The notes below the pieces were generated by a model, which was not told the DNA's origin, made no database searches, and saw only the letters and a program-made list of their open reading frames with translations. A stretch of 64,000 nucleotides of DNA. It comes from Candidatus Forterrea multitransposorum CG_2015-17_Forterrea_25_41. GTDB lineage: Archaea; Iainarchaeota; Iainarchaeia; Iainarchaeales; CSSED10-239. This document shows, piece by piece, positions 1-52,288 of the stretch (positions within the stretch are counted from its first letter, which is position 1; each line of letters starts with the position of its first letter). The translations under genes were made by a program, and so were the position numbers. The stretch lies in the NCBI GenBank assembly GCA_009392915.1, contig CP045477.1:1-64000 (forward strand), written 5' to 3'.

Positions 1-1092
1 ATGCCAATTTCAAAAAAAAACATATTTTCAAATGTTAAAAACATAGAAGAGTCTATCTTTAAAGATGAACAAGTCTTTTATCCAGACTTTACTCCAGAAA
101 ACATTTTTTCAAGAGATTCACAAATTAAAGAACTTTCTTTTTCTTTAAAACCATTAATTTCAAATAAAAAAGCAAATAATTTTTTAATATATGGACCTCC
201 AGGAACAGGTAAAACTTTAACTTCAAGATTTGTTTTAGAAGAACTTATAAATTATTCTTTAAAAGTTAAATATCTATATGTTAATTGTATACAAGATAAT
301 ACAAGATTTTCTGTATTTTCAAGAATAGTTTCTTTCTTTGGAGGAATAATGCCAAGAAGAGGTCTTGCAGTTGATGAAATTTGGCAAAGAATTAAAGAAC
401 TTTTTTCAAAATCTTCTTTTTCACCAGTAATTATTTTAGATGAAATTGATAAACTTAAAAAAGAAGATCTTTCTGTACTTTTATATGATCTTTCAAGATT
501 TTCTTCAAATAATAAATATTTTACATTAATCTTAATTACAAACAATAAATCTTTTATTTTAGACTTAGATTCAAGAACCCAAAGCTCTTTATTTTTAAAA
601 GATTTAGAATTTAAAAAATATTCTTCTCAAGACCTAAAACTAATCTTAAAAGAAAGAGTTAATTATGGGCTTATTGAGAATGCAATTTCAGAAGATTTAA
701 TAGGGTATATTGCAGGATATGCAGCAATAAGAGATGGAGATGCAAGAATTGCTATTGATCTACTATATAAAGCTGCAAAGCAATCTGAAAGAGAGGGTAA
801 TTTGATGATCTCTAAAGAGGTTTTATTGTCTGTTTCAAACTTAATAGATTCTATTAAACTTAATGAAAAGATAGCTTCTCTTTCAAAAGAAGAATTTATG
901 TTTTTAAAATCTCTAAAAGAAGATCAAACAACAACAGAAGCATATTCTTCTTTAAAAGAAATTGCTCAAAGAACAAAAAGTAGATATCTTTTAAAATTTG
1001 AAAAATTAGGTTTTATTTCTTTTTCTCCAGTAAAAGAAGGAAAAGGTAATGTTAGAATAATATCTTTAAATTTTAATAAAGAATTATTATAA
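1..1092 (+). CDS. orc1: Orc1/Cdc6 family replication initiator (AAA+ ATPase with winged helix)
   Basis: Walker A GPPGTGKT, Walker B IILDEID, C-terminal winged-helix-like region. The ORF begins at the window edge, so upstream sequence and any origin are not visible. Confidence 0.9.
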   Translation: MPISKKNIFSNVKNIEESIFKDEQVFYPDFTPENIFSRDSQIKELSFSLKPLISNKKANNFLIYGPPGTGKTLTSRFVLEELINYSLKVKYLYVNCIQDNTRFSVFSRIVSFFGGIMPRRGLAVDEIWQRIKELFSKSSFSPVIILDEIDKLKKEDLSVLLYDLSRFSSNNKYFTLILITNNKSFILDLDSRTQSSLFLKDLEFKKYSSQDLKLILKERVNYGLIENAISEDLIGYIAGYAAIRDGDARIAIDLLYKAAKQSEREGNLMISKEVLLSVSNLIDSIKLNEKIASLSKEEFMFLKSLKEDQTTTEAYSSLKEIAQRTKSRYLLKFEKLGFISFSPVKEGKGNVRIISLNFNKELL

Positions 1093-1111
1093 AAAAACAG
1101 GTGATTAAATC

Positions 1112-1366
1112 ATGGGCTTTTTAAAAACTGATAAAAAAAAAGTAGAAGTTAAAGATGGAGATAAAGTAATTAAAGCTGCAGAAAAATTAGGTGTGCCTTT
1201 TAGTTGTAGAGAAGGTATTTGTGGTACTTGTAAAGTAAAGGTTGTAGATGGTTATGATAATTTAGCTGAAAAAACAAGTAATGAAGAATTTATGGATTTA
1301 AAAAAAAATGAAAGATTAATGTGTCAATGTAAACTTAAGTCAGGAGAAGTAAAAATTAAATTTTAA
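1112..1366 (+). CDS. small plant-type [2Fe-2S] ferredoxin-like protein
   Basis: Cys pattern CREGICGTCKV...CQC (C-x4-C-x2-C...C) in 84 aa. GGTGA Shine-Dalgarno-like site upstream. The 3' end overlaps the convergent OFOR beta gene. Confidence 0.7.
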   Translation: MGFLKTDKKKVEVKDGDKVIKAAEKLGVPFSCREGICGTCKVKVVDGYDNLAEKTSNEEFMDLKKNERLMCQCKLKSGEVKIKF

Positions 1367-2207
1367 TTATTTTTTTTAGTTTCTCTAAATTTCTTTTTCT
1401 TTTAAAAAGAGGATTTTTATTTTTTTGATAAACATTTTGCATTTCTTCAAAGGTTTTTTTCTTTTTAGAAATATAAATTATTCCTAAAGGCATTTTTTCA
1501 GTTTCTAAAGCTTTTAAAATTGCATTTTCTTTATTTTCTGGATTATAATCTTTTTCTAAATAATATGTGTTTTCTTTAAACCATTCAAAAGTATTTATTT
1601 TATTAAAAGTTACACATGGTTGAAGAATATCTACAATTGATAAGCCTTTATGATAAATTGCTTTTTGTAAGATTTCTTTTGTTTCTTTCAAGTCCCCTAT
1701 GTTTGCTCTAGCAACAAAAGATGCATCTAAAGAAATAGCTAGAGAAATTGGGTTTAAGGGCTCTAAAATAACCCCTGTTGTCTGAACTATAGTTTTCATT
1801 CCTTTTTTACTTGTAGGAGATGCTTGTCCTTTTGTTAAACCATAAATCATATTGTTGTGCACAATTATTGTAATATCTGGATTTCTTCTAATAGCATGTA
1901 AAAAATGATTTCCACCTTCTCCATACATATCTCCATCTCCACTTGTAACAATTACTTTTAAATCAGGATTAACAGCTTTAATAGCGGTTGCAGGAGGAAG
2001 TGATCTTCCGTGAAGTCCATTAAAAAAATTTGTATTAATATATTGTGGTGTTTTTGCCGCTTGTCCTATTCCTGAAACTAAAACTATATTTTCTGGTTTT
2101 AGTTTGGTTTCTTCTAGTACTTTTTTTAAAACTAAGTGTATTCCAAAATTTCCACATCCAGGGCACCATGCAATTTCTGTTTGGTTTGAAAAATCTATTT
2201 TGTTCAT
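1356..2207 (-). CDS. 2-oxoacid:ferredoxin oxidoreductase beta subunit (TPP-binding)
   Basis: N-terminal CPGCGNFG cluster motif and SGDGD TPP/Mg motif. Lies immediately downstream of the alpha/gamma-containing ORF. Confidence 0.9.
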   Translation of the reverse strand: MNKIDFSNQTEIAWCPGCGNFGIHLVLKKVLEETKLKPENIVLVSGIGQAAKTPQYINTNFFNGLHGRSLPPATAIKAVNPDLKVIVTSGDGDMYGEGGNHFLHAIRRNPDITIIVHNNMIYGLTKGQASPTSKKGMKTIVQTTGVILEPLNPISLAISLDASFVARANIGDLKETKEILQKAIYHKGLSIVDILQPCVTFNKINTFEWFKENTYYLEKDYNPENKENAILKALETEKMPLGIIYISKKKKTFEEMQNVYQKNKNPLFKRKRNLEKLKKIIKI

Positions 2208-2210
2208 ATT

Positions 2211-5093
2211 TTAATCTAACCTCTCTGTTATTTCTTGCATGACCTCTTCTACAAAGAATTGCAATCCATTATATTTTAATATTTTAATAACTTCTTTATT
2301 TGTTTCTTTTTTAATAAGTTCTGCAAATTGCCCTGTTGCATTTCCTTCAATAACTATTATTTTTTTTGCAGATTTAAGTAAGTCTTTTGTTCCAGGATAA
2401 ATTGGATATAATTGTTCATAATGAAGATATTTTATTTTTTTATTATCTATTTTTTCAACAGCTTCTTTAATTGTTTCAAAAGTACTTCCCCATCCAATAA
2501 TAATTATTTCATTACCTTTTCCAATAATTGTTGGCTTTAAACTTTCAAAAGTTATATCTTCTATTCTTTTTAATCTTTTTTTAACCATTTTAATTCTTAA
2601 AGAAAAATCTTCTGTAATATGTCCTGTTTGGTCATGTTCGTCACTATCCACACAAACTAAACCTTTTCCAAAGCCAGGGATTGCTCTAGGGGAAATTCCA
2701 CTTTCTGTAAAAGCATATCTTTGATAATCTTTTTTACTTTCTATAATATATTTTTCTTTATCTTCTTTTATTTCTATTTTTTCAAAAGGATAAAGATTTT
2801 CCATAAAATATTGATCTGTTAATATAAAAACAGGAATTTGGTATTTTTGAGAATCAATAAAAGCTTTGTTTGTAATCTCTACAGCACTTTTTAAATTTTT
2901 AGGAGCATATACAATTCTTGCAAATTCTCCATGTCCAGCGTGCATAACTAAATTTAAATCTTCTTGAGCTGTTCTTGTTGGAAGTCCAGTTGCAGGTCCT
3001 GGTCTTTGAGCTACATGTATGACTAATGGAGTTTCTATCATTCCTGCAAGGCTTACACCTTCACACATAAGTGCAAATCCTCCACCAGATGTGTTTGTAA
3101 GTGATCTTGCACCTGCAAAAGATGCTCCTAAACACATGTTTATTGCTGAAATTTCATCTTCTGCTTGTTCTACAATAATATCAAAATTTTCTCTTAATTT
3201 TGCTAGATTTTGTAAAACACCTGTTGATGGTGACATTGGGTATGCTGATATAAAATCACACCCTCCAGCAATTGCTCCGTATGCTATTGCTTGAGCACCT
3301 GTAAATAAATTATTTAATTTTATTTGTTTATTTTTTTTAATTTTTGGTAAATTTTTAACTATTTTTAAAATTTCTTTTCCTTTTAAAATACCTTTTTCTG
3401 CTGCTTGAATATTTTTTAAAACAATTTCTTTTCCTTTTTTTGAAAAACTTTCTTTTAGTTGTTTTATAAAATATTTTTTATTAATATTTAGTATTCCTAA
3501 AAGAGTTCCTGTTGCAACAGTGTTTGCAAAAACTTTATTTCCTATTTTTTCTGCAATTTCTTTAAAGGAAACATCAATTGTTTTATTTTTAAGCCCTAAT
3601 TTTCTAACTTCTTCTTTATTTCCAATAATAATTGTATTTTCATCAATTCTTTCTTTTAAATGTTCTATAGTATTTTTATCTAAAGCAAGTAAAATATCTA
3701 TTTTTTTTAAATTTCCTCTTCTTTCTTTTTCTGTAAGTCTAATAGATATGGTGTTAACTCCTCCTCTAACTCTTGACATATATTCAGAGTTTGAAGAAAA
3801 GTAAAAACCTTCTTCTTTAAGTATTTTAAGTAAAACATTTTGAACAGATACAAGACCTTGGCCTGCTTCTCCAGAAAGTACAATTGATAATTCTTTTTCA
3901 TCTATTTTTTTATTTTTAATTTCTTTTTTAAAAAGTTCTTTTGTTTTTTCAGTAATTATCTTTGAAAATTCATTTAATTTTTTAAAGTTTTCTTTTTTAG
4001 GAATTCCTGTTGAAATTTCTCCTAAAATAACTTCTGCTTCAAAATTATTTGTAATATTTTCAAATTCTTTAAAGGCTTCCCCACCCCATTCTTTAGATCC
4101 AATAAATCCAATAATTTTTGTTTTTGGTTTTAATTTATTTAAAGTACTAACTGTTGTTGAAACAATAGGGTGAAGCCCACCTAAAAAAGTAGGAGATGCT
4201 ATAATTAAAGTTGACGCATCTACCATTTCAATTGCAAGTTGTCCTATCTCTGTAGTTGTAAGATTATATTCTTTAACTTTATTGCCTTGGTTAATAAGTT
4301 TAGAAGTTAAATATTCAACCATTTTTTTTGTACTTCCGTGCATAGAAGTATACCCAATAATTATTTTTGGTTTGGTTTCTTTTTTTGACCAATTATAGTA
4401 TTTATCAATTATCCAATCAACATCTTGGTATATTTTTCCATGACTTGGAGCTATTATTTTTGGATTATATTCTTTTATTTTTTCTAAGTTTTTAAGAATA
4501 TAATTTCTAAAAGGCATCATTATTTCTGCATAATATCTTTTAGCAGGTAATTCTATTTCTTTTGTATCTTTAACAAATAATTCGCTTGTTGCAAGATGTG
4601 CTCCAAAAAAATCACAAGAAAACAAAATTTTATCTTCTTTTAAAAAAGTAGACATAGTTTCTGGCCAATGAACCCAAGGAGTATAAATAAATTTTAAGGT
4701 TTTATCTCCTAAGCTAATTTCTTCTAAGTCTTTAATAACTTGTATTCTTTTTTCCTCAATTACCATTTCATCTAAAAGTATTTTTTTACAAAGAGGATTA
4801 CAAATTAATTTTGCTTTTGGAAATTTATTTAAAATTATAGGTATTGATCCAGAGTGATCTTGTTCTGCATGATTAGATATAATATAATCTATATTTTTAA
4901 TATTTAATTTTTCTAAGTTTAAAATAAGTTCTTCTGTTTTTGTAATGTCAACAGTGTCTATTAAAGCTGTTTTTTTAGATCCAATTATTAAGTATGAATT
5001 GTAGCTAGTTCCATCTGGAAGATAGATTAGTTCATCAAAAAGCTTTCTATCCCAATCAATGGCTCCAACTGAATATATGTTTTTCTTAATCAT
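2211..5093 (-). CDS. fusion protein: flavodiiron protein (metallo-beta-lactamase diiron + flavodoxin) joined to OFOR gamma and alpha modules
   Basis: aa 1-240 carry FDP diiron ligands HAEQDH, VHWPE, CDFFGAH, PSHG. aa ~243-390 are flavodoxin-like (GYTSMHGSTKKM). From aa ~401, SGEAGQG marks the OFOR gamma module. From aa ~595, TGAQAIAYGAIAGGCDFISAYPMSPST marks the alpha module. Confidence 0.8.
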   Translation of the reverse strand: MIKKNIYSVGAIDWDRKLFDELIYLPDGTSYNSYLIIGSKKTALIDTVDITKTEELILNLEKLNIKNIDYIISNHAEQDHSGSIPIILNKFPKAKLICNPLCKKILLDEMVIEEKRIQVIKDLEEISLGDKTLKFIYTPWVHWPETMSTFLKEDKILFSCDFFGAHLATSELFVKDTKEIELPAKRYYAEIMMPFRNYILKNLEKIKEYNPKIIAPSHGKIYQDVDWIIDKYYNWSKKETKPKIIIGYTSMHGSTKKMVEYLTSKLINQGNKVKEYNLTTTEIGQLAIEMVDASTLIIASPTFLGGLHPIVSTTVSTLNKLKPKTKIIGFIGSKEWGGEAFKEFENITNNFEAEVILGEISTGIPKKENFKKLNEFSKIITEKTKELFKKEIKNKKIDEKELSIVLSGEAGQGLVSVQNVLLKILKEEGFYFSSNSEYMSRVRGGVNTISIRLTEKERRGNLKKIDILLALDKNTIEHLKERIDENTIIIGNKEEVRKLGLKNKTIDVSFKEIAEKIGNKVFANTVATGTLLGILNINKKYFIKQLKESFSKKGKEIVLKNIQAAEKGILKGKEILKIVKNLPKIKKNKQIKLNNLFTGAQAIAYGAIAGGCDFISAYPMSPSTGVLQNLAKLRENFDIIVEQAEDEISAINMCLGASFAGARSLTNTSGGGFALMCEGVSLAGMIETPLVIHVAQRPGPATGLPTRTAQEDLNLVMHAGHGEFARIVYAPKNLKSAVEITNKAFIDSQKYQIPVFILTDQYFMENLYPFEKIEIKEDKEKYIIESKKDYQRYAFTESGISPRAIPGFGKGLVCVDSDEHDQTGHITEDFSLRIKMVKKRLKRIEDITFESLKPTIIGKGNEIIIIGWGSTFETIKEAVEKIDNKKIKYLHYEQLYPIYPGTKDLLKSAKKIIVIEGNATGQFAELIKKETNKEVIKILKYNGLQFFVEEVMQEITERLD

Positions 5094-16279: not shown

Positions 16280-16306
16280 TTTTAAATTTTAAAAAATGTG
16301 TTTTTT

Positions 16307-18844
16307 ATGGATGATGCAAATTTAATGCTTTTAAAAAAGAAAGTAAAAGCTATAAAACAATATAAAGGCCAAGGTACTCAACTTATAAGTCTTTATCTTC
16401 CACCTGATGCAGATAGAAGTTCTGCAACAAAACAATTAACTGATGAAATGAGTCAATCTTCAAATATTAAGAGTGCTCAGACTAGAAAAAATGTACAAGC
16501 AGCTTTAAAAAGAATTATTAATTATTTAAAACAAATTGATTTTAAACTTCCTGAAACAGGTTTAGTTTTATTTTCTGGAGATGTTTCAACTAATCCTTCT
16601 AAATCAGATGTAATTTTACTTGCAATTGCACCTCCTGTAAGACTTACAACTAAGCTTTATTGGTGTGATTCAACATTTCACATAGCTCCTTTAGAAGATA
16701 TGGCACAAACAGATGATGTTTATGGTTTAGTTGTTCTTGACAAACGAGAAGCAACAGTTGCTATTTTAAGAGGAAAATCTAAAGAAATTCTTTTTTCAGA
16801 AACCTCAAATGTTCCTGGTAAAACAAAAGCCGGGGGGCAATGTTTAAAAGATGCTTTTGTATCTTTATCTGATGGGAATTTAATAGATGTTAGTGAAATT
16901 TCTAAAAAGGATATTCTTTCTTCTATGAATTTTAAACAAAATAAATTAATTAATTCTAAGGTTTTAGATAATTGGTCAGTTTCTAAAAATAAAACATATA
17001 TTATTAAAACAAAAGCTCCTGGTACAGAAATAAAAGCTAGTGAAGATCATATATTTTTTGTTTTAACTCCAGATGGTGTTGTTGAAAAAGCTTCAAAAGA
17101 TTTAACTTTAAATGATTATTTGTTATTTCCAGAAAAATTATCTTATAAAAATAAAATTTGGTCTTTTGATACTAAAAAATATATTTCTAAATTAAATAAA
17201 CCTTCTATAAAGATACCTATAAAACTTAATAATGTATTTGCTAAATTTTTAGGTTATTTATTAGGTGATGGTTCTATTGAAACTGATAGATTAACTTTTT
17301 ATGAATCTAGAAAAGATGTTATTTTAGAATATAAAAAGTTATTTGATAAATATTTTAATGTAAATTCTTCTTTAACTTTTAGAGATTCTAAAAATTATTA
17401 TCAATTAAGAGTTAATTCAACTGCTCTTGTAAGATTAATTAAAGAAGAATTTAAGGAAATTAAAAAAGCAAGAGATTCTTTAATACCTTCTAAAATATTA
17501 ACTTCTTCTAATAAAATATTAGCTAATTTTTTAAAAGGATTTTATGATGCTGAAGGTTATATTAATACTTCTAGAAAATCAATAGATATTGGAATAAATA
17601 ATAAAAAAATTGCACAACAACTTCAATTATCATTATTAAGATTTTCAATTATTGGATCTTTACAAGAATATGATAATAAACAAAATCCTTATACAAATAA
17701 CCATAGGTTTGTGATTTCAATTTCTGATAAAGAGTCAATAGATTCTTTTGAAAAAAATATTAATTTTACTTCTTTTGAAAAGCAAAAAAAAATAAAAAAA
17801 ATTCAAAAATTAAAAACAAACATGAGTTTCTCAAGAACACTTCCTGTATATGGTAGTCAGGTTAGATCTGTTGTTACAAAACATGGTTATAATTTAGAAC
17901 TTTTCCCAAAAGTGAGTAGTTTTTTCAATAATAATAGAATGCTTAGTAAATGCTTTTTTAAAAGTTCTGTTTTAGATTATGTTAAAGATAAATCTCTTTT
18001 AAAAGATTTAATTAAATTTTATAATATGCCATTTTTTGCTGCAAAGATAAATTCTATATTTATTGAAAAAAAGAAAACAATTATGACAGACATTTCTGTT
18101 GCTAATAAATCTTTTATTGCAAATGGATTAATTGTTCATAATTCAGCACATAGATTCGAAAGACTAAGAGATAAATATGAAGAAGAGTTTTATAAGAGAG
18201 TAGGTTCTAAAGTAAATACTGCTTTTGTAGATCTTGATAATTTTAAAGGAATGATTGTTGGTGGTCCTGGACTTACTAAAAATGAATTTTTAGAAATTGG
18301 TGATTTAGACCACAGAATAAAAGATAAAGTTTTAGGAACTGTAGATACTTCTTATACAGATGAGTCAGGTATAAAAGAAGTTTTAGATAAATCTGAAGAT
18401 ATTTTAAAAGAAACTGGTTTAGTTCATGAAAGAAAATTAATTAATAAGTTTTTTGAAGACTTAGCAAAAACAGGCCTTGCAAATTATGGTTTTCAAGATG
18501 TAATTGATGCCTTAAATATTGGTAAAGCTTCAACTGTTTTAGTGTCTGAAGGTTTAGAATGGACTGTTTTAATTTTTAAATGTTTATCAGACAAATCTAG
18601 ATTTATAAAAATTGTTAAAGATAAACATGAAGTTTCTGATACTATCTCAAAATTTGAAAATTCTCCAACAGATTGTCCAGAAGGTAAAGCAGAACTTGTT
18701 GAAGAAGTTGATATATATGATTATTTTATAGATATTTCTAAAAATACAAGTGCAAAAGTTGAACTTATTTCTATTGAAACTTTAGAAGGTAAACAATTTT
18801 TTGAAACTTTTGGAGGGCTTGCAGCTTTCTTAAGATATAGGTAA
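16307..18844 (+). CDS. prf1: peptide chain release factor aRF1, interrupted by an intein
   Basis: The exteins join to ...VPGKTKAGGQ|SAHRFERLRDKY..., the canonical aRF1 GGQSxxRF region. NIKS-like SNIKSAQTR in the N-domain. Confidence 0.9.
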   Translation: MDDANLMLLKKKVKAIKQYKGQGTQLISLYLPPDADRSSATKQLTDEMSQSSNIKSAQTRKNVQAALKRIINYLKQIDFKLPETGLVLFSGDVSTNPSKSDVILLAIAPPVRLTTKLYWCDSTFHIAPLEDMAQTDDVYGLVVLDKREATVAILRGKSKEILFSETSNVPGKTKAGGQCLKDAFVSLSDGNLIDVSEISKKDILSSMNFKQNKLINSKVLDNWSVSKNKTYIIKTKAPGTEIKASEDHIFFVLTPDGVVEKASKDLTLNDYLLFPEKLSYKNKIWSFDTKKYISKLNKPSIKIPIKLNNVFAKFLGYLLGDGSIETDRLTFYESRKDVILEYKKLFDKYFNVNSSLTFRDSKNYYQLRVNSTALVRLIKEEFKEIKKARDSLIPSKILTSSNKILANFLKGFYDAEGYINTSRKSIDIGINNKKIAQQLQLSLLRFSIIGSLQEYDNKQNPYTNNHRFVISISDKESIDSFEKNINFTSFEKQKKIKKIQKLKTNMSFSRTLPVYGSQVRSVVTKHGYNLELFPKVSSFFNNNRMLSKCFFKSSVLDYVKDKSLLKDLIKFYNMPFFAAKINSIFIEKKKTIMTDISVANKSFIANGLIVHNSAHRFERLRDKYEEEFYKRVGSKVNTAFVDLDNFKGMIVGGPGLTKNEFLEIGDLDHRIKDKVLGTVDTSYTDESGIKEVLDKSEDILKETGLVHERKLINKFFEDLAKTGLANYGFQDVIDALNIGKASTVLVSEGLEWTVLIFKCLSDKSRFIKIVKDKHEVSDTISKFENSPTDCPEGKAELVEEVDIYDYFIDISKNTSAKVELISIETLEGKQFFETFGGLAAFLRYR
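16841..18142 (+). mobile_element. intein (434 aa) with LAGLIDADG homing endonuclease, inserted after the GGQ motif of aRF1
   Basis: Starts with Cys (CLKDAFVSLSDG, block A) and ends ...GLIVHN followed by Ser. LAGLIDADG blocks LGYLLGDGS and LKGFYDAEGY. In frame with the aRF1 exteins. Confidence 0.85.
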
Positions 18845-23653: not shown

Positions 23654-23699
23654 TATTGTCTAACCTATTTTATTACTAGATAAAGGAGGTTAGACAATA
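23654..23699 (+). promoter_or_regulatory. 13-bp perfect stem-loop occluding the transposase SD and start codon
   Basis: TATTGTCTAACCT (23654-23666) pairs with AGGTTAGACAATA (23687-23699). The right arm covers part of GGAGG and the A of the ATG. Confidence 0.5.
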
Positions 23700-24661
23700 T
23701 GAATATTAAGAACGAAAAGATTAATAAAAGGAACTGGTCAAAGATAAATTATGGAAAAACAAGACAAATCTTGTTTTTACTAGATAAAAACATTATTTTT
23801 AGTGAAAATGAAAGACTAGTTTCCCAAAATAAAAACAAACCAGGAAGACAATTTATATATAGTGATAGAATAATAGAACTATTAATTGATCTTAAAAATT
23901 ATTTTAAATTTGATTATCGTAAACTACAGGCATTCTGCCTGTTGTTTAATAATGTTATAAAAATAAAAACACCTGACTTTACAACTATTTGTAGAAGAAT
24001 GCACAAATTAGAATTATTTCTAAAAAATATAAAAACAAAAAAAGAACCAACCTTTATAGCTATAGATGGTTCTGGACTTCAAACTACTAATCGAGGAGAA
24101 TGGCTTAGATTAATACACAAAAAAGGAAAAATAAACTTAAGAAATGGATTTGTAAAATTAGTGATTGCAACAGATGTTGCATCTGGAGAAATAACTGGAG
24201 TGTATATTTCAGATGATTCTGATTTTGAAAATAAAAGCTTATCAGATTTATTATACCAAACAATAAATAATCAAAACCAAGAAGTCAAAGGACTTCTTGG
24301 AGATGGGGCATACGATTCTTATGATAACTTTGATATGCTTGATGATATGGGAATAAAACCAATTATCAAAATCAGAAAGAATGCAATTACAACAGAACCT
24401 AATGACGATTATTTAAAAAGAAGAAGAAAACTTGGAAAAAAGAAAAAAATAAAAAGAATTGAAGTTGCAAAAAAGCAACTTAAAAATGTAGATGACTGGA
24501 AACAAAAAAATGAGTATAATAAAAGGTGGGTTGTTGAATACACGTTTAGTGTATTCAAAAGACTATTCGGACATAGTGTGTACTCTAAAAGAAAGAAATA
24601 TGTCAAAAATGAAGTAATTTCTAAAGTAAATTTGTATAATAAATTATTAAATATCAATTAA
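23699..24661 (+). CDS. DDE transposase, IS4/IS5 superfamily
   Basis: D (IAIDGSG), D (LLGDGAYDS) and an exact Y-x2-R-x3-E-x6-K signature (YNKRWVVEYTFSVFK). Confidence 0.85.
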   Translation: MNIKNEKINKRNWSKINYGKTRQILFLLDKNIIFSENERLVSQNKNKPGRQFIYSDRIIELLIDLKNYFKFDYRKLQAFCLLFNNVIKIKTPDFTTICRRMHKLELFLKNIKTKKEPTFIAIDGSGLQTTNRGEWLRLIHKKGKINLRNGFVKLVIATDVASGEITGVYISDDSDFENKSLSDLLYQTINNQNQEVKGLLGDGAYDSYDNFDMLDDMGIKPIIKIRKNAITTEPNDDYLKRRRKLGKKKKIKRIEVAKKQLKNVDDWKQKNEYNKRWVVEYTFSVFKRLFGHSVYSKRKKYVKNEVISKVNLYNKLLNIN

Positions 24662-24818: not shown

Positions 24819-26192
24819 ATGGCTATAGACAAAAGATTTTTTTTAGGGATAACTATTAGTAAAAAAAGAAAAGCAATTTCTCCTTTAATTGCCACTATTC
24901 TTTTAATAGTTGTTGCCGTTGCAATTATAGCTATTATTGTTTCCTGGGGAAAAGGATTTACCAATGATTCTTTAAGCAAAGCCTCTGGTCTTGAAATTTA
25001 CACTGAATCAGAAACTTCTTTTTACTTGCAAGTAAAAAATTCAATAAACGGAAGAACTGTTGTTCAATATAATCCTCCTTATAATTCTCCTCACACCTCT
25101 TTAACCATAACAGGTTATAGCCTACATGGTAACACGAATATTAATCCCATAGATCCACCAATTACAATAACTGCAAACCAAACTGCAGTTATTGATCATG
25201 GTATTTTATTTCCAGAATTAAATTTAGTTTTATATTTGGATAATGATCGAATGATTATTAAAACTGATCTTTTACAAACTATTAAATCTCCTCTTTCTTG
25301 TCCAGAAGGTTATGTTTCTGTTCCAGGAAACCACTTATATGGAACTATGAATGAAAGTGGGGGTTTTTGTGTTTCAAAATATGAGATGAAAATGGATAGA
25401 ACAGGAGATGGAATAGGAAATCTTGTAGCTGATTATCCTGATTGTAACACCGGTTCTTTAACATATAATACTTATAGTTATGAATTATGCCCTACACCAG
25501 GCACTTTAGTTTCTACTCCAGAAGGTTCTCCCATAGCAAGAATCACACAAACTGAAAGCATATCAGCCTGTGAAGCTATTGGTGGTCATTTAATAACAAA
25601 TAACGAATGGATGACCATTGTACGAAACATAGAACAAGTTCCATCTAATTGGTCAGGTGGAGCAGTTGGTGATGGCTACCTTCCAAGAGGGAATTCATCT
25701 TCTTCAGGAGCTATGGAAGGCTTTGATCAACTTTCAGGAACTACCAAAAGAACCTTGACCTTAACAAACGGAGAGGTAATTTGGGATTTAGCAGGAAATG
25801 TAAGACAATGGACCAGTGACACTATTCAAAGAAAGGACCAGCCTGATGGTTTTAATAATGTAGATGATAGTAATAATACTTCTGGTTTTAATTGGTTTGA
25901 TTATTTTAAGGGCGGTGGAGTAGATCAATATATTTATTCTGATAATTTAGGTAACACCACCTTAAAGTATAAAGATTTATTTTTATTAACTAGTAATACT
26001 TATAATGCAACAGATAATGGTGTTGGAAGGATTTATACTTATAGTGATTTTAGTGATACTAGTACAACTGAGTACGCGTTTTTGCGCGGTGGTCACTGGG
26101 GCAATGGCACTAATGCCGGGGTCTTGCACCTGGTCTTGAACAAGACTCCTGGGTCCCGGAGCATCCTCATCGGCCTGCGCTGTGTCAAGTAG
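24819..26192 (+). CDS. DGR target protein: archaeal pilin-type class III signal peptide, linker, FGE/C-type-lectin-fold domain with C-terminal variable region
   Basis: N-terminus KKRKAISPLIATILLIVVAVAIIAIIV (DUF1628-like). FGE-sulfatase-like motifs SKYEM, GGHLITNNEW, WDLAGNVRQW, RGGHW and IGLRCVK. The last ~39 codons are the VR matching the TR downstream. Confidence 0.9.
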   Translation: MAIDKRFFLGITISKKRKAISPLIATILLIVVAVAIIAIIVSWGKGFTNDSLSKASGLEIYTESETSFYLQVKNSINGRTVVQYNPPYNSPHTSLTITGYSLHGNTNINPIDPPITITANQTAVIDHGILFPELNLVLYLDNDRMIIKTDLLQTIKSPLSCPEGYVSVPGNHLYGTMNESGGFCVSKYEMKMDRTGDGIGNLVADYPDCNTGSLTYNTYSYELCPTPGTLVSTPEGSPIARITQTESISACEAIGGHLITNNEWMTIVRNIEQVPSNWSGGAVGDGYLPRGNSSSSGAMEGFDQLSGTTKRTLTLTNGEVIWDLAGNVRQWTSDTIQRKDQPDGFNNVDDSNNTSGFNWFDYFKGGGVDQYIYSDNLGNTTLKYKDLFLLTSNTYNATDNGVGRIYTYSDFSDTSTTEYAFLRGGHWGNGTNAGVLHLVLNKTPGSRSILIGLRCVK

Positions 26193-26195
26193 TTT
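26075..26195 (+). repeat. DGR variable repeat (VR)
   Basis: 121 bp aligns without gaps to 27300-27420. There are 13 mismatches, 12 of them at TR adenines. GC-rich compared with its surroundings. Confidence 0.9.
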
Positions 26196-26232
26196 TTAGA
26201 AAAAATATATTTCATCCCCAAACCATGTATTT

Positions 26233-26263
26233 AGACGGGTGAGACGGCAAGACGGCCAGACGG
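26233..26263 (+). repeat. four tandem AGACGG motifs in a GC-rich patch downstream of the VR
   Basis: AGACGGgtgAGACGGcaAGACGGccAGACGG with 9/8/8-bp spacing. No ORF covers it. Confidence 0.6.
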
Positions 26264-26362
26264 AAGAAGCCATGGCAACCTAAACGTTTCAAGATTGTTT
26301 TTGCAAAAAAATGAAAAAACGTATTTGTGAAGTTTTAAAAAAAAGAAATGAGTGTGATTTTT

Positions 26363-26396
26363 GCAAATTTTTTTGATTTTTTTCAAAAAAATTTGC
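26363..26396. other. perfect 13-bp inverted repeat (AT-rich hairpin)
   Basis: GCAAATTTTTTTG, an 8-nt loop, then CAAAAAAATTTGC, between the DGR target gene and the first Avd-like gene. Confidence 0.5.
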
Positions 26397-26498
26397 TAGC
26401 CGTTAAACCAAATGGTTTTTTAATGTAAAAATAATTTTTATAATAATTAAGTTTTAAAGAAAAAATACTTTATATCTTGGACAAACAATGTGATTTAA

Positions 26499-26885
26499 AT
26501 GAGTTTAGTTGGAAATGAAAAAGGAATTCTAAATTTTGGTGTTTACAAGGAGCTTTTCCCAATCGTTATTGAAACTTATAATTTTTTAGAAAATAATAAA
26601 TCTTTATTTAAAGTAGATTTTGTTTATACAGATACTGTTAAAAATTTAATAGATATTCTTTCTTTTCTTTCCAAAGGGTATAATAAATTTCATTCTAATG
26701 AAAAATCTTTACTTTACTCTTATTCAAGAGATTGTGTTTCTACAACCCAATCTAATCTTTTAATATTATCTGAACTTAATAAAGATCTCTCAAAAGAAAA
26801 AACCTTATATTTTTATAATCAATTTGAGGATAAAATAAAGTATTTTAATGGTTTAATAAAAAAGATTGAAGAAAATAAAAACTAG
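26499..26885 (+). CDS. divergent four-helix-bundle (Avd-like) protein
   Basis: 128 aa with predicted helical repeats that loosely parallel Avd (VYKELFPIVIETYNFL..., LLILSELNKDL..., YFNGLIKKIE). Positioned directly upstream of avd. Confidence 0.4.
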   Translation: MSLVGNEKGILNFGVYKELFPIVIETYNFLENNKSLFKVDFVYTDTVKNLIDILSFLSKGYNKFHSNEKSLLYSYSRDCVSTTQSNLLILSELNKDLSKEKTLYFYNQFEDKIKYFNGLIKKIEENKN

Positions 26886-26896
26886 GGTATATTATT

Positions 26897-27226
26897 ATGT
26901 TATTTGACTTAAAGTTATATAAAGAAACTTATAACTTTTTACTTTATATTTATCCTGAAATAAATAAATTCCCTAAATCAGATAAATATTCTTTAGGAGA
27001 GGATATTAAAAAAACAACTATTTCTTTAATGTCAAATATTGTTCTTTTTTCAAAGCATAATGAAAATACTTTAAAAGAAGCAGATAAAAACTTAGAATTA
27101 CTAAGAATATATATTAGGCTTTCTTTTGATTTAAAAATAATCTCTTTTAAAAAATATGAGGTTATTTCAAGGCAATTAAATGATATTGGTAATTTATTAG
27201 GTGGTCTTTTAAAACAAAAGATTTAA
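26897..27226 (+). CDS. avd: DGR accessory variability determinant (Avd; four-helix-bundle / 23S rRNA-IVS protein family)
   Basis: LYKETYNFLLYIYPEINKFPKSDKYSLGEDIKKTTISLMSNI matches the family pattern. 109 aa, located between the target gene and the TR. Confidence 0.8.
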   Translation: MLFDLKLYKETYNFLLYIYPEINKFPKSDKYSLGEDIKKTTISLMSNIVLFSKHNENTLKEADKNLELLRIYIRLSFDLKIISFKKYEVISRQLNDIGNLLGGLLKQKI

Positions 27227-27299
27227 ATATTTTTTCAACTAATAGTTATGTTGTTCTTTTAAATAAAAAGAATAGGGCTTTTACAGAAAAAAACAGGTG

Positions 27300-27420
27300 C
27301 GCGTTTTTGCGCGGTGGTAACTGGAACAATGGCACTAATGCCGGGGTCTTGAACCTGAACTTGAACAATACTCCTGGGAACCGGAACAACAACATCGGCC
27401 TGCGCTGTGTCAAGTAGTTT
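27300..27420 (+). repeat. DGR template repeat (TR)
   Basis: Non-coding copy of the VR, rich in AAC/AAT triplets in the VR frame (G N W N N G T N A G V L N L N L N N T P G N R N N N I G L R C V K). Lies 258 bp upstream of the RT gene. Confidence 0.9.
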
Positions 27421-27422
27421 CT

Positions 27423-27445
27423 CCTTATTATTTTTAATAATAAGG
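27423..27445 (+). other. perfect 10-bp stem-loop immediately 3' of the TR
   Basis: CCTTATTATT, loop TTT, then AATAATAAGG, followed by a T-run. Confidence 0.55.
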
Positions 27446-27678
27446 TTTTATCAGAGTTTGTATGTTTATTTTTTTATCTAAAAAAACATATAAAGCGAAT
27501 ATTTTAAAAAACTACATCTGTAAAATGTTTCCTGATTGCACATAATGTGTGCCATAAGAACTATTTTGTTTTTATGTTAAAAAATCAAATATAAAGATAA
27601 GTTATTACATTTAGTATTTTTATAGTCTGTAAAAAGAAATCTGTAATAACTCTTAACTTTAAATAAGGCTTTTTAAAA

Positions 27679-28695
27679 ATGAAATCATACAATAACCTTT
27701 GGCAAGAATTCACTTCTTTTAAAAATATTTTTAATGCCTATAAAAAAGCAAGAAAGTCCACACCAAACAAAAAGTATATCTTGCAATTTACCACAAATTT
27801 AGAAAAGGAGTTATTCTTATTACAAGATCAATTAATTTCAGAAAATTTTCAATTTTCTCCTTACAGAAGTTTTAAAGTTTATGAACCTAAAGAAAGAACA
27901 ATAAGTGCACCTATTTTCAGGGATGTTGTTGTTCAGCATGCCATAATAAACATTATTGAACCTATTTTTGATAAAACCTTTATAGATAACTCTTTTGCTT
28001 GTAGAAAAGGAAAAGGCACACATAAAGGGCTTTTTGAAATTAAAAAAGTAATTCAAACCCCAAATCATCCAAAATACTATTTAAAACAAGATGTAAAGAA
28101 ATACTTTCCTTCAGTTCATAAACCTACCTTAAAAGAAATAATTTTTAAAAGAATTAAGGATGCAAGATTACTTTCTCTAATATATAAAATAATTGATAGT
28201 TATTCTTTTGATTTAAATCAAATTCAAAAAGGTATCCCTATAGGTAATTTAACCTCTCAGTTGTTTGCAAATATTTATTTAAACCATTTAGATCAGTATG
28301 TTAAGCATTCTTTAAAAATTAAACATTATTATAGATATGTAGATGATTTTTTAATATTTTCAAACAATAAAAGAAAATTACATGTTTTTAGAAGAAAAAT
28401 AAAATTATTTTTAAGTAAAGAACTATTATTAGATGTTCCAAAAAATAAAACTTATATAAACTTAGTAAGTAAAGGAGTTGATTTTTTAGGTTATAAGGTA
28501 TTTCCTTCAAACATAAGATTAAGAAAATCAAATCTTAAAAGATTTCTTCTAAGACAAAATAAAAATAACTTTCTTCTAAAAAAAAATCAAATTTCTAAAC
28601 TTAACTATAATTTTTCTCTTTTTTCTTTTTTAGGTTATGCAAAGCATGCAAACTCTTATAATCTCTTAAGTACTTTAAATATTAATGAGTTATAG
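27679..28695 (+). CDS. DGR-type reverse transcriptase
   Basis: RT motifs SAPIFRDVVVQHAI, IPIGNLTSQLFANIYL (DGR-typical [I/L]GxxxSQ) and YVDDFLIF. 338 aa, adjacent to the TR. Confidence 0.9.
   Translation: MKSYNNLWQEFTSFKNIFNAYKKARKSTPNKKYILQFTTNLEKELFLLQDQLISENFQFSPYRSFKVYEPKERTISAPIFRDVVVQHAIINIIEPIFDKTFIDNSFACRKGKGTHKGLFEIKKVIQTPNHPKYYLKQDVKKYFPSVHKPTLKEIIFKRIKDARLLSLIYKIIDSYSFDLNQIQKGIPIGNLTSQLFANIYLNHLDQYVKHSLKIKHYYRYVDDFLIFSNNKRKLHVFRRKIKLFLSKELLLDVPKNKTYINLVSKGVDFLGYKVFPSNIRLRKSNLKRFLLRQNKNNFLLKKNQISKLNYNFSLFSFLGYAKHANSYNLLSTLNINEL
28589..28687 (+). repeat. 99-bp direct repeat, copy 1 (3' end of the RT gene)
   Basis: Identical base for base to 30138-30236. Confidence 0.9.
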
Positions 28696-50782: not shown

Positions 50783-52288
50783 ATGAAACTAGAATTAAAA
50801 ATAAAAATATTAGATATTTATGCAAATTATCCAATAGTTATTATGCATCCAAGATCATCATTAAGTTTAGGTGCACAAAATTTAGATAGATTAGAAGTTA
50901 AAAATGAAAAAATTGATACAGCTTTTGTTTTAGACACTTCAAATTCTTATGTTACAGAAAATGAATTAGGTATTTTTAAAGATACAGCAAAAGATCTAAG
51001 TTTAAACAACGGAGATAAAGTAGTTGTAAAATTACAAACACCTCCTCTTGCAACTAAATATATAATGGATAAAATAAAAAATAAAACTTTAGAAAAAGAA
51101 GAAATTGATGAAATTGTAAAATCTATAGAAAACAATTCTTTATCAGAAGTTGAATTATCTGCTTTTGTAACTGGAGTTTTCATAAATGGTCTTAATTTAG
51201 AAGAAACTAAATTTTTATGTAATTCTTTAGTTGATATTGGAGATAGAATTGATTTTGGAGAAAACATTATTTTAGATAAACATTCTATTGGTGGAATTAA
51301 TGGTAGAGTTTCAATGATATTAACTCCAATTATTGCATCTTTAGGTTATAAAATTCCAAAAACAGCGTCTAGATCAATAACTTCTGCAGCAGGTACTGCT
51401 GATGCCATGGAAGTTTTAGCTCCTGTAAGCTTTGATGTTGAAGAAATTAAAGAAATTATAAATAAAGCAGGTGGAGTTGTTGCATGGGAAGGTAAATTTG
51501 ATCTTTGTCCTGTAGATAATAAATTAATTGATATTGAACATGCTTTAGGAATTAATCCAGAAGGAATAATGATTGCATCTATTCTTTCAAAGAAAAAAAG
51601 TATAGGTTCAACTCATCTTGTAATTGATATTCCTGTTGGAAGAGATGTTAAAGTTAAAAATAAAGAAGATGGAGAACGTCTTGCAAAGAAATTTATAACT
51701 ATTAGTGAATCTTTAGGTATTAAATCTAAGGTTGTTTTAACTGATGGTGATAAACCTTGTGGGGATTTCTTTGGTCCAGCTCTTGAAGCTAAAAATGTTT
51801 TAGAACTTTTAGAAGGTAAATATCAAGACTCTGTTTTAGAGAAAGCATGTCTTCTTGCAGGTGAACTTTTAGAGCTTGTTGGAAAATCAAAAAATGGAGA
51901 AGGTTATCTTCTTGCAAAAGAAATTGTAACTTCTGGAAAAGCTTTAGATAAATTTATTGAAATTATTAAAATTCAAGGTGGAAGTATTTTAAGATCAGAA
52001 GATGTTCCAAAAGCTAAGTTTATACAAAAGATTTATTCTTCACAAGCAGGGGATGTAAATAATTTTGATGTTTCAAAAATAACTCATTTAGCAAAACTTT
52101 TAGGTGCTCCAAAAGATATTGAAGCAGGTGTTGTTTTATTCTGTCAAGTAGGAGATTCTGTACAAGTAAATGATGCTATATTAGAGTTCCATGCAAATAC
52201 AGAAGAAAAAATATCAAGAGCTATTGAGTATTTAAAAGATAATAATCCTGTTATCTTTGATAAAATGGTTTTAGAAGAGTTTGAATAA
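50783..52288 (+). CDS. AMP phosphorylase (archaeal thymidine-phosphorylase-family enzyme)
   Basis: N-terminal extra domain (LKIKILDI...PIVIMHP), DKHSIGG and SAAGTADAME motifs; 501 aa. Confidence 0.75.
   Translation: MKLELKIKILDIYANYPIVIMHPRSSLSLGAQNLDRLEVKNEKIDTAFVLDTSNSYVTENELGIFKDTAKDLSLNNGDKVVVKLQTPPLATKYIMDKIKNKTLEKEEIDEIVKSIENNSLSEVELSAFVTGVFINGLNLEETKFLCNSLVDIGDRIDFGENIILDKHSIGGINGRVSMILTPIIASLGYKIPKTASRSITSAAGTADAMEVLAPVSFDVEEIKEIINKAGGVVAWEGKFDLCPVDNKLIDIEHALGINPEGIMIASILSKKKSIGSTHLVIDIPVGRDVKVKNKEDGERLAKKFITISESLGIKSKVVLTDGDKPCGDFFGPALEAKNVLELLEGKYQDSVLEKACLLAGELLELVGKSKNGEGYLLAKEIVTSGKALDKFIEIIKIQGGSILRSEDVPKAKFIQKIYSSQAGDVNNFDVSKITHLAKLLGAPKDIEAGVVLFCQVGDSVQVNDAILEFHANTEEKISRAIEYLKDNNPVIFDKMVLEEFE

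Follow-up and report, generated by a model that had tools for sequence, protein, structure and literature searches.

The DNA considered here comprises positions 1 to 64,000 of contig CP045477.1 from Candidatus Forterrea multitransposorum (hereafter the window, meaning this whole 64-kb stretch), and the subject of our analysis is a gene on its minus strand, 2211..5093, in which a flavodiiron protein (FDP) is joined in one chain to the alpha subunit of a 2-oxoacid:ferredoxin oxidoreductase (OFOR). The list of open reading frames (ORFs) gives 960 aa plus a stop codon, with an ATG start and zero internal stops, which bears out the uninterrupted ORF described in an initial annotation of this DNA, and Pfam and NCBIfam domains as well as full-length homologues underlie the assignment. 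A separate OFOR beta gene (1356..2207, minus strand, 283 aa, recognised by PRK11869 and by alignments with Protein Data Bank (PDB) entries) starts 3 nt past the alpha stop on the same strand, and its 3' end overlaps by 11 bp that of a convergent gene for a plant-type [2Fe-2S] ferredoxin (Fer2; 1112..1366, plus strand, 84 aa, PF00111), an arrangement that agrees with the earlier coordinates. As the DNA around the locus has a G+C content of only ~25%, at which stop codons are frequent by chance, a 2.9-kb ORF is not accidental, and in combination with Pfam E-values down to 1e-56 it lies far beyond chance. The absence of a delta-type ferredoxin subunit was likewise confirmed, since no CxxCxxCxxxCP motif was found across the 64-kb window, which is normal for the two-subunit OFOR family. 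Elsewhere in the window, neither an FNR-like ORF nor a second OFOR nor 4Fe-4S ferredoxin or rubredoxin motifs were found.

Domain architecture and cofactor sites

The N-terminal part of the protein consists of a metallo-beta-lactamase-like diiron domain (4389..5093, minus strand, aa 1-235), in which the Pfam ODP/Lactamase_B match covers aa 29-219, and a flavodoxin-like domain for flavin mononucleotide (FMN) (3930..4376, minus strand, aa 240-388), which aligns with Moorella FprA 1YCF up to aa 379 and is covered at aa 244-378 by Pfam and NCBIfam flavodoxin matches (TIGR01753 and Flavodoxin_5, both weak). An NCBIfam NorV/flavorubredoxin model matches aa 2-384 with 234 bits. Alignment with solved FDPs, namely Moorella FprA 1YCF, D. 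gigas ROO 1E5D, methanogen FprA 6FRM and 2OHH, and E. coli flavorubredoxin 6ETB, revealed that H75, E77, D79, H80, H142, D161 and H218 match the known diiron ligands residue for residue, and all seven are invariant in an alignment of 21 fused homologues. The FMN-binding loops read SMHGSTKKM, ASPTFLGGLHP and GSKEWGG, with SMHGST, SPTFLGGLHP and GSxEWG conserved in the family, and S250, H252, G253, T255, S300, H308, P309, S333, W336 and G337 are invariant or near-invariant in the same 21 sequences. The protein thus carries both sequence hallmarks of an FDP core, the diiron ligand set and a flavodoxin-like domain directly after it, in line with the complete flavodiiron moiety proposed in the initial annotation. 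Near relatives of this FDP core occur fused to a hemerythrin plus ScdA-like domain, to an EamA transporter domain or to a PALP domain (P0052, P0056, P0063), and this FDP lineage appears, judged by these architectures, unusually prone to fusion.

A Lys/Glu-rich linker of ~13 residues (3891..3929, minus strand, aa 389-401) leads over to the OFOR half, which comprises, all on the minus strand, the CoA-binding domain III or 'gamma' domain with SGEAGQG (3369..3890, aa 402-575; PF01558 match at aa 410-569), domain I with YPMSP, a YPITP-type motif, and R697 (2574..3311, aa 595-840; PF01855, POR_N, at aa 606-838, E 2e-56), and domain II (2214..2531, aa 855-960; PF17147, PFOR_II, at aa 862-942). With domains III-I-II on one chain and a TIGR03710 (OAFO_sf) match that spans aa 402-955 and model positions 2-561 of 561 with 613 bits, above the curated cut-off of 483, the half belongs to the TIGR03710 family. 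It also bears the alpha motifs SGEAGQG and YPMSP together with the conserved Arg R697 in QRPGPATGLPTRT, YPMSP being a conservative YPITP variant present in 108-111 of 111 subfamily alphas. That OFOR gamma and then alpha sequences follow the FDP, as had been annotated, is supported by all four models. However, their union is ordinary for a TIGR03710-type alpha: residues 398-402 onward align from residue 3 of the alpha chain of Sulfolobus tokodaii StOFOR (5B48_A) and residue 2 of that of Magnetococcus MmOGOR (6N2N_A), the domain II region aligns through to the ends of both chains, and the supposed gamma-alpha fusion is therefore the normal alpha of a two-subunit OFOR, leaving the boundary between FDP and domain III at aa 389-401 as the only unusual junction.

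An AlphaFold2 model of the monomer (mean predicted local distance difference test score, pLDDT, 81.7) shows two confident halves and a disordered linker (aa 390-397, pLDDT <50). Linker length varies from ~15 to >200 residues in the 21-sequence alignment, the long linkers being acidic and of low complexity; those of P0017, P0018, P0021 and P0023 measure 60 to >200 residues, and P0017 reaches 1186 aa in total.

A different N-terminal extension of the alpha subunit was seen in P0155 and P0162 (830-857 aa), members of the same OFOR subfamily that carry a cytochrome b5-like heme domain and a DUF2231 membrane domain, which suggests membrane- or heme-linked OFORs. As these modules occupy the same position, the alpha N-terminus before domain III appears to be a recurrent site for the attachment of electron acceptors.

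The beta subunit scores 462 bits against PRK11869 (cut-off 438) and is accordingly a member of that family, and its thiamine pyrophosphate (TPP) motif GDGD...NN is intact and aligns with StOFOR and MmOGOR. In contrast to the four cysteines of a StOFOR-type [4Fe-4S] site, it contains only C15, C18 and C198, and PDB alignments place Gln49 (SGIGQAAK) at the position of the third Cys (SGIGC) of 5B46_B, 5B48_B, 6N2N_B and 8YS5_C. Decay or cofactor loss was considered as an explanation and ruled out, as SGIGQ recurs in 76 of 76 partner betas of the closest alpha homologues, from sources including Pirellulales, Atribacterota, Bacillota, Methanobacterium, Thermococcaceae, Chlorobiales and Asgard archaea. 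Gln49 is hence a trait of a widespread OFOR subfamily and no defect of the window gene. Cys612 of alpha, considered as a substitute cluster ligand, is conserved in 99 of 111 subfamily alphas. The replacement of Cys by Gln at a [4Fe-4S] site throughout a subfamily poses a separate, testable question for OFOR enzymology. Apart from this sole anomaly, the cofactor residues that the annotated function depends on are kept, with FDP, FMN, TPP, CoA-domain and [2Fe-2S] residues all conserved.

Distribution, origin and constraint of the fusion

A search of 5.8 billion protein clusters returned 22 full-length fused clusters (942-1186 aa, 45-100% identity) and one contig-edge fragment, drawn from JGI, ENA, NCBI and Logan assemblies; where the source is named, it is Candidatus Woesearchaeota or Nanoarchaeota, and the proteins are annotated merely as 'OFOR subunit alpha'. 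P0003 is found on 13 contigs and P0021 on 10, and the 21-sequence alignment shows the OFOR motifs to be invariant alongside the diiron ligands. An exhaustive hidden Markov model search of 1.84 billion representatives at 50% identity yielded only two full-length fusions (P0014 and P0020), and the architecture is therefore confined to one lineage. In a neighbour-joining (NJ) tree of 111 alphas, 20 of 20 fused alphas form one clade with no unfused intruder, and the tree of the FDP halves has the same internal topology, which indicates that the two halves have co-evolved since a single fusion.

Ratios of nonsynonymous to synonymous substitution (dN/dS), calculated against the 94%-identical orthologue L081, were 0.089 (FDP half), 0.084 (alpha), 0.14 (beta) and 0.07 (Fer2). 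All four are thus under purifying selection, and the linker, over only 12 codons, is relaxed (0.58). A frameshift or assembly join at the junction, either of which would undo the fusion proposed in the initial annotation, is excluded by an in-frame junction in ~23 clusters from four data sources and by dN/dS values of ~0.085 on both sides of it. That the fusion is an artefact of assembly, frameshift or gene calling, or a decaying gene, could be suspected from an apparently unfused alpha of 87% identity (P0013) and from a 'bacterial' full-length match (L057); both are explained otherwise, and given the junction and selection data we regard this possibility as practically negligible. P0013 was rejected as a close unfused alpha, being an internal-Met gene call on a 2.2-kb contig with the FDP C-terminus in frame upstream. 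L057 was rejected as a bacterial fusion, as it consists of separate genes with an FDP of only ~35% identity and a spacer of ~360 nt before alpha. This locus (678-4920 on a 47%-GC contig assigned to an 'uncultured bacterium'), in which a stand-alone class-A FDP gene precedes by ~360 nt a separate alpha and a separate beta gene, both from the same OFOR subfamily, may represent an independent FDP-OFOR association.

The ferredoxin and FNR modules at related loci

Ten fused loci, including the window, were examined for their surroundings, and they fall into four clades with different arrangements. In the window's own clade (window, P0003 and P0004, 74-100% identity; window, L081 and L094), the fused gene is accompanied by a beta of 283-285 aa and a convergent, overlapping 84-aa Fer2. 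In P0006-P0012 (~55% identity; L084 and L088), beta measures ~513 aa owing to a C-terminal FAD/NAD-binding, FNR-like module, with a convergent 84-aa Fer2 behind it; in L088 the gene call splits what is one continuous beta-FNR ORF. P0014-P0016 (~50% identity; L089 and L095) have a beta-FNR of 527-546 aa, and their Fer2 is divergent and lies upstream, beside an RNase_T gene. Finally, in P0017-P0023 (45-49% identity; L086, L090 and L091), Pfam assigns the TPP domain, FNR and a C-terminal Fer2 to one beta chain of 631-680 aa.

The FNR-like NAD(P)-binding module is consequently present on beta in all clades except that of the window, whose beta C-terminus coincides with the exact starting point of FNR in L084. 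Tree position and the FNR on the betas of the other clades indicate that its absence is a derived loss in the window clade. On this comparative basis, the ancestral complex would also have exchanged electrons with NAD(P)(H) through the FNR-like module on beta, a branch that the window clade lost.

The nearest non-OFOR relatives of the FDP half are single FDP-FNR chains, P0044 and P0048 (656-658 aa), with an FDP half 52-56% identical to that of the window and an FNR half 53% identical to the beta FNR of L089. They share the RNase_T and divergent Fer2 surroundings of L089 and L095 and group in the FDP tree beside P0014-16, inside the fused clade, in 48 of 50 NJ bootstraps. FDP-FNR chains of 623-658 aa with an adjacent divergent [2Fe-2S] ferredoxin gene were observed in L092 (3052-5399), P0044, P0048 and P0226; none of the published FDP classes has FNR as a partner. 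By its order of modules, FDP-[alpha / beta]-FNR(-Fer2), the fused system resembles an NAD(P)H oxidase of the FDP-FNR/Fer2 type that has an OFOR pair at its centre, and the OFOR pair was probably lost secondarily in the P0044/P0048 lineage. The modular series, running from FDP-FNR through FDP-alpha + beta-FNR + Fer2 and FDP-alpha + beta-FNR-Fer2 to FDP-alpha + beta + Fer2, constitutes a natural experiment in redox-enzyme evolution and offers ready constructs for biochemistry.

Fer2 is a constant companion in these loci. The window protein matches PF00111 with E 3e-15 and 56 bits (cut-off 21), and its ligand pattern C32-x4-C37-x2-C40...C71 is conserved in all separate and fused orthologues, which share AAExLGVPFxCRxGxCGTCKV...CQxKIKxGxV and are orthologous throughout. 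Its gene adjoins the fused gene pair in the window, L081, L084, L088, L089, L094 and L095, and is fused to beta-FNR in L086, L090 and L091. Its presence in 10 of 10 loci together with its fusion to beta in three of them amounts to a Rosetta-stone link, according to which Fer2 belongs to the machine, as an integral component and likely mediator. Because Fer2 also accompanies the OFOR-less FDP-FNR chains, it is probably the normal point of electron entry into the FDP.

As to further neighbours, L086 contains genes for a peroxiredoxin, a protein resembling thioredoxin reductase, a ferric reductase of NOX-like type and a 2-hydroxyacid dehydrogenase, and L090 contains those for a malic enzyme and a flavodoxin. 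Going by predicted function, these neighbourhoods fit O2 stress and pyruvate supply. No nitrogen-oxide genes were found at any fused locus examined.

In the window itself, the OFOR-FDP locus is the sole redox-metabolic module within 64 kb. The remaining gene content includes Orc1/Cdc6, PCNA, a Rad50-like ATPase, primase, eIF2-alpha, HerA-like ATPases and TruD, as well as a Hel308-like helicase, CCA-adding enzyme, FttA/aCPSF1, KsgA, AglB and Nre, and by these predicted genes the window represents a small archaeal genome dominated by information processing. Among its few metabolic genes besides the OFOR locus is one for a 501-aa nucleoside/AMP-phosphorylase-like protein (50783-52288; Glycos_transf_3 and PYNP_C). 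A diversity-generating retroelement was noted at 24819-28695. Its target gene (24819-26192, plus strand) encodes an FGE-sulfatase/C-type-lectin fold and contains the variable repeat (26072-26195) at its 3' end; the template repeat (27297-27420) is 89% identical to the variable repeat and has adenine at 13 of 14 mismatches, and the reverse transcriptase is located at 27679-28695. The transposase of an insertion sequence (DDE_Tnp_1, 23699-24661) lies directly upstream of the retroelement region, and the aRF1/eRF1 release factor gene (16298-18844) bears an intein insertion with a LAGLIDADG homing-endonuclease domain.

Proposed electron path, alternatives and known systems

Flavodiiron proteins are the main O2 and NO scavengers of anaerobes, and to our knowledge all described 'self-sufficient' FDPs draw electrons from NAD(P)H via fused rubredoxin or flavin reductase modules. 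The present locus encodes every module that a continuous electron path requires, and these modules are conserved, tied to one another genetically and under selection. We consider it probable, if well short of assured, that they form a compact, soluble, 2-oxoacid-driven O2 (possibly NO) reductase of a DPANN (Woesearchaeota-type) archaeon, a reading in which the route of the electrons, the assembly into dimers, the substrate and a preference for O2 rather than NO are inferred from sequence. The machine would consist of a two-subunit OFOR with an FDP tethered to the alpha N-terminus, a TPP/[4Fe-4S] beta and a dedicated [2Fe-2S] ferredoxin. With coenzyme A (CoA), the OFOR would oxidise a 2-oxoacid to acyl-CoA and CO2; pyruvate would be the likeliest substrate, as a malic enzyme and a 2-hydroxyacid dehydrogenase are encoded at related loci and such organisms lack a tricarboxylic acid cycle. 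Two electrons would then leave TPP via the single [4Fe-4S] cluster of beta and reach the FMN of the tethered FDP, through the [2Fe-2S] ferredoxin and/or directly, from where the diiron site of the partner FDP would receive them, within an (alpha-beta)2 assembly with a head-to-tail FDP dimer. There O2 would be reduced to water, each O2 costing two turnovers of the OFOR. The stoichiometries match, as FDPs form obligate head-to-tail dimers and OFORs form (alpha-beta)2 assemblies, and with the established redox ranges of the cofactors the proposed chain is thermodynamically downhill throughout.

The flow of 2-oxoacid electrons to an O2- or NO-reducing centre, as suggested in the initial annotation, is strengthened by the comparative evidence, but its direct nature is uncertain, a conserved Fer2 being the likely mediator. 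Since Fer2 is the probable entry point also where OFOR is missing, we rate transfer via Fer2 as more likely than a strictly direct transfer from cluster to FMN; a tether as short as that of the window protein would be compatible with both. In use, the complex would remove O2 in the immediate vicinity of the O2-labile OFOR and would serve as a ferredoxin-independent electron sink for a fermenter that has no respiratory chain, with acyl-CoA freed for ATP. With FNR gone from the window clade, a pure 2-oxoacid-to-FDP route would remain.

Several observations weigh against this proposal. The AlphaFold2 monomer, which contains the fused alpha chain only, has a predicted template modelling score (pTM) of 0.57, and its halves take no defined mutual orientation. 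That linkers in relatives attain up to 200 residues speaks against a rigid and optimised direct contact between FMN and cluster. The three-Cys beta leaves the nature of its putative cluster uncertain, though this is true of the whole subfamily. Lastly, the second-sphere residues of the FDP give a mixed and hence ambiguous signal with respect to O2 and NO: D49 aligns with D52 of E. coli NorV, a position reported to tune the O2/NO preference, whereas the second tuning position, H252 within SMHGST, is identical to the O2-specific methanogen F420H2 oxidases (6FRM, 2OHH) and differs from the NorV residue. D52 and this second position are the two tuning sites named in the title of a J Biol Chem 2014 article cited in PMC12528894.

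The acceptor is the point at which a first alternative departs, namely an NO reductase (2 NO to N2O) in which 2-oxoacid electrons detoxify NO, for instance in denitrifying sediments or groundwater. The best NCBIfam matches of the FDP are NorV models, though far below their cut-offs, and D49 points the same way; H252, the peroxide- and oxygen-stress genes near L086 and the lack of nitrogen-oxide genes at the examined loci speak for O2, as does the fact that most characterised class-A-type FDPs of anaerobes are O2 reductases. The locus context favours O2 over NO as the acceptor, and we consider an NO reductase quite unlikely. It is also conceivable that fusion provides co-localisation only, with the FDP as a bodyguard of the OFOR that receives its electrons mainly from NAD(P)H via FNR and Fer2, as in the relatives, or from a ferredoxin reduced by other enzymes, and with OFOR electrons passing through Fer2 to other metabolism. 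Fer2, FDP and FNR stand alone without OFOR in L092, so the FDP can be fed without it, and some homologues have long flexible linkers. The window clade, however, lost FNR and keeps FDP-alpha, beta and Fer2 under strong constraint, and with no FNR-like gene in the 64-kb window, OFOR is the only evident source of reductant in this lineage's module. Co-localisation alone, which moreover overlaps with a 2-oxoacid-driven reductase in that OFOR-reduced Fer2 would feed the FDP anyway, thus appears unlikely.

Two further alternatives question whether the FDP half is an electron sink at all. It could be an O2 sensor or regulator of the ODP type that switches OFOR activity, as the top Pfam match of the diiron domain is the ODP model PF19583. 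This model, however, matches ordinary FDPs too, ODPs are devoid of the flavodoxin domain that is complete and conserved here, and the conserved Fer2 and FNR partners indicate electron flow, which makes a sensor highly improbable. Conversely, the flavodoxin domain and Fer2 could feed low-potential electrons to OFOR for 2-oxoacid synthesis in CO2 fixation, as in related enzymes of Chlorobiales and methanogens, and the same OFOR subfamily does occur in Chlorobiales and Methanobacterium genomes. A diiron O2/NO-reducing domain would have no role in such a scheme, the locus is linked to no source of low-potential reductant, the reducing power of NAD(P)H via FNR is by established thermodynamics insufficient, and DPANN genomes are not known for autotrophy; the reductive direction is therefore scarcely plausible.

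If the 2-oxoacid-driven O2 reductase is real, it would connect a fermentation substrate with O2 by the shortest route known and would provide built-in protection for an O2-labile OFOR, which bears on how minimal-genome DPANN archaea cope with, and even profit from, O2 in groundwater and sediments. A bolder extension, which we put forward tentatively and judge possible rather than probable, is that the complex acts as a soluble and self-sufficient oxidoreductase between 2-oxoacids (pyruvate) and O2, a non-respiratory terminal oxidase wired directly to substrate-level phosphorylation. For ultra-small DPANN archaea, traces of O2 would thereby become an electron sink that raises ATP yield and O2 tolerance without a membrane electron-transport chain. 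The protein would then define a ninth FDP class, its FNR-bearing relatives would act as three-way hubs between 2-oxoacid, NAD(P)(H) and O2, and the beta subunit may hold an unprecedented 3-Cys/Gln cluster.

Natural fusions of FDPs to their own redox partners constitute classes B-H (PMC6033852, PMC9364112), and the published extra modules are only rubredoxin, short rubredoxin, NADH:rubredoxin oxidoreductase and flavin reductase (PMC6033852; classes A-H also PMC9364112). The multidomain FDPs of these classes, among them E. coli flavorubredoxin, cyanobacterial Flv and class F of Clostridioides difficile and Trichomonas vaginalis, likewise start with a diiron and FMN core with the full ligand set. 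The window protein, whose extra module consists of OFOR domains III-I-II, falls outside the published classes A-H. In contrast to classes B-H, its FDP is joined to the alpha subunit of a 2-oxoacid oxidoreductase that depends on TPP, so that the reductant would be a carbon substrate and not NAD(P)H, and this partner belongs to a hetero-oligomer in which beta and the ferredoxin are proteins of their own.

Seen from the OFOR side, the enzyme shares with the two-subunit OFORs (Sulfolobus tokodaii StOFOR 5B46/5B48, Magnetococcus OGOR 6N2N, haloarchaeal POR/KOR) an alpha of domains III-I-II, a beta with TPP and a single [4Fe-4S] cluster, and the lack of delta, and it conserves their TPP, CoA-domain and YPITP-type motifs along with the Arg. 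It differs from them in the 400-aa N-terminal FDP on alpha, in the extension of sister-clade betas by FNR with or without Fer2, and in the Gln that its beta subfamily carries for the third cluster Cys, which is found in no solved structure. The acceptor of two-subunit OFORs in haloarchaea is a plant-type [2Fe-2S] ferredoxin, according to titles cited in PMC2946596.

A covalent connection between an OFOR and a flavodoxin-type FMN domain, by which a free ferredoxin is bypassed, resembles pyruvate:NADP+ oxidoreductase (PNO), and in L084, L086 and L089-L091 the likeness extends to an FNR-type domain. PNO of Euglena and Cryptosporidium is pyruvate:ferredoxin oxidoreductase (PFO) joined to an FMN/FAD module of the NADPH-cytochrome-P450-reductase type. 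In the fused FDP system, by contrast, the flavodoxin lies inside an FDP at the alpha N-terminus, FNR and Fer2 lie at the C-terminus of beta, the FNR module belongs to another type and a diiron O2/NO-reducing site is added. The window enzyme moreover lacks the combination of OFOR, FMN domain and FAD/NAD(P)H domain that characterises PNO, as its beta ends before FNR and no FNR-like ORF is present in the window.

A functional parallel is the hydrogenosome of Trichomonas vaginalis, together with Stygiella, with which the component set of 2-oxoacid oxidoreductase, ferredoxin and a class-A-type FDP as terminal O2 reductase is shared. Smutna and co-workers are said to have found in 2009 that ferredoxin is the donor to the Trichomonas FDP. 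Hydrogenosomal FDP has been described as the terminal oxidase of a PFO/ferredoxin organelle (PMC3669245, PMC6856725), and Stygiella possesses an FDP-ferredoxin fusion (PMC4989108); a preprint presents cyanobacterial FDPs as ferredoxin-powered (bioRxiv 10.1101/2023.05.19.541409). In the protists, however, each component is a soluble protein of its own or the fusion is restricted to FDP and ferredoxin, whereas in the window the fusion includes the dehydrogenase itself and the ferredoxin gene is firmly tied to the operon. Full-text literature searches, whose coverage of subscription papers was incomplete, did not bring up any account of an FDP fused to an OFOR, nor any of FDPs in Woesearchaeota or other DPANN archaea. 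By its predicted architecture, the protein represents a fusion class new among FDPs, which can equally be regarded as a new fusion among OFORs; public databases already contain it without its having been recognised, and its underlying chemistry recombines known parts.

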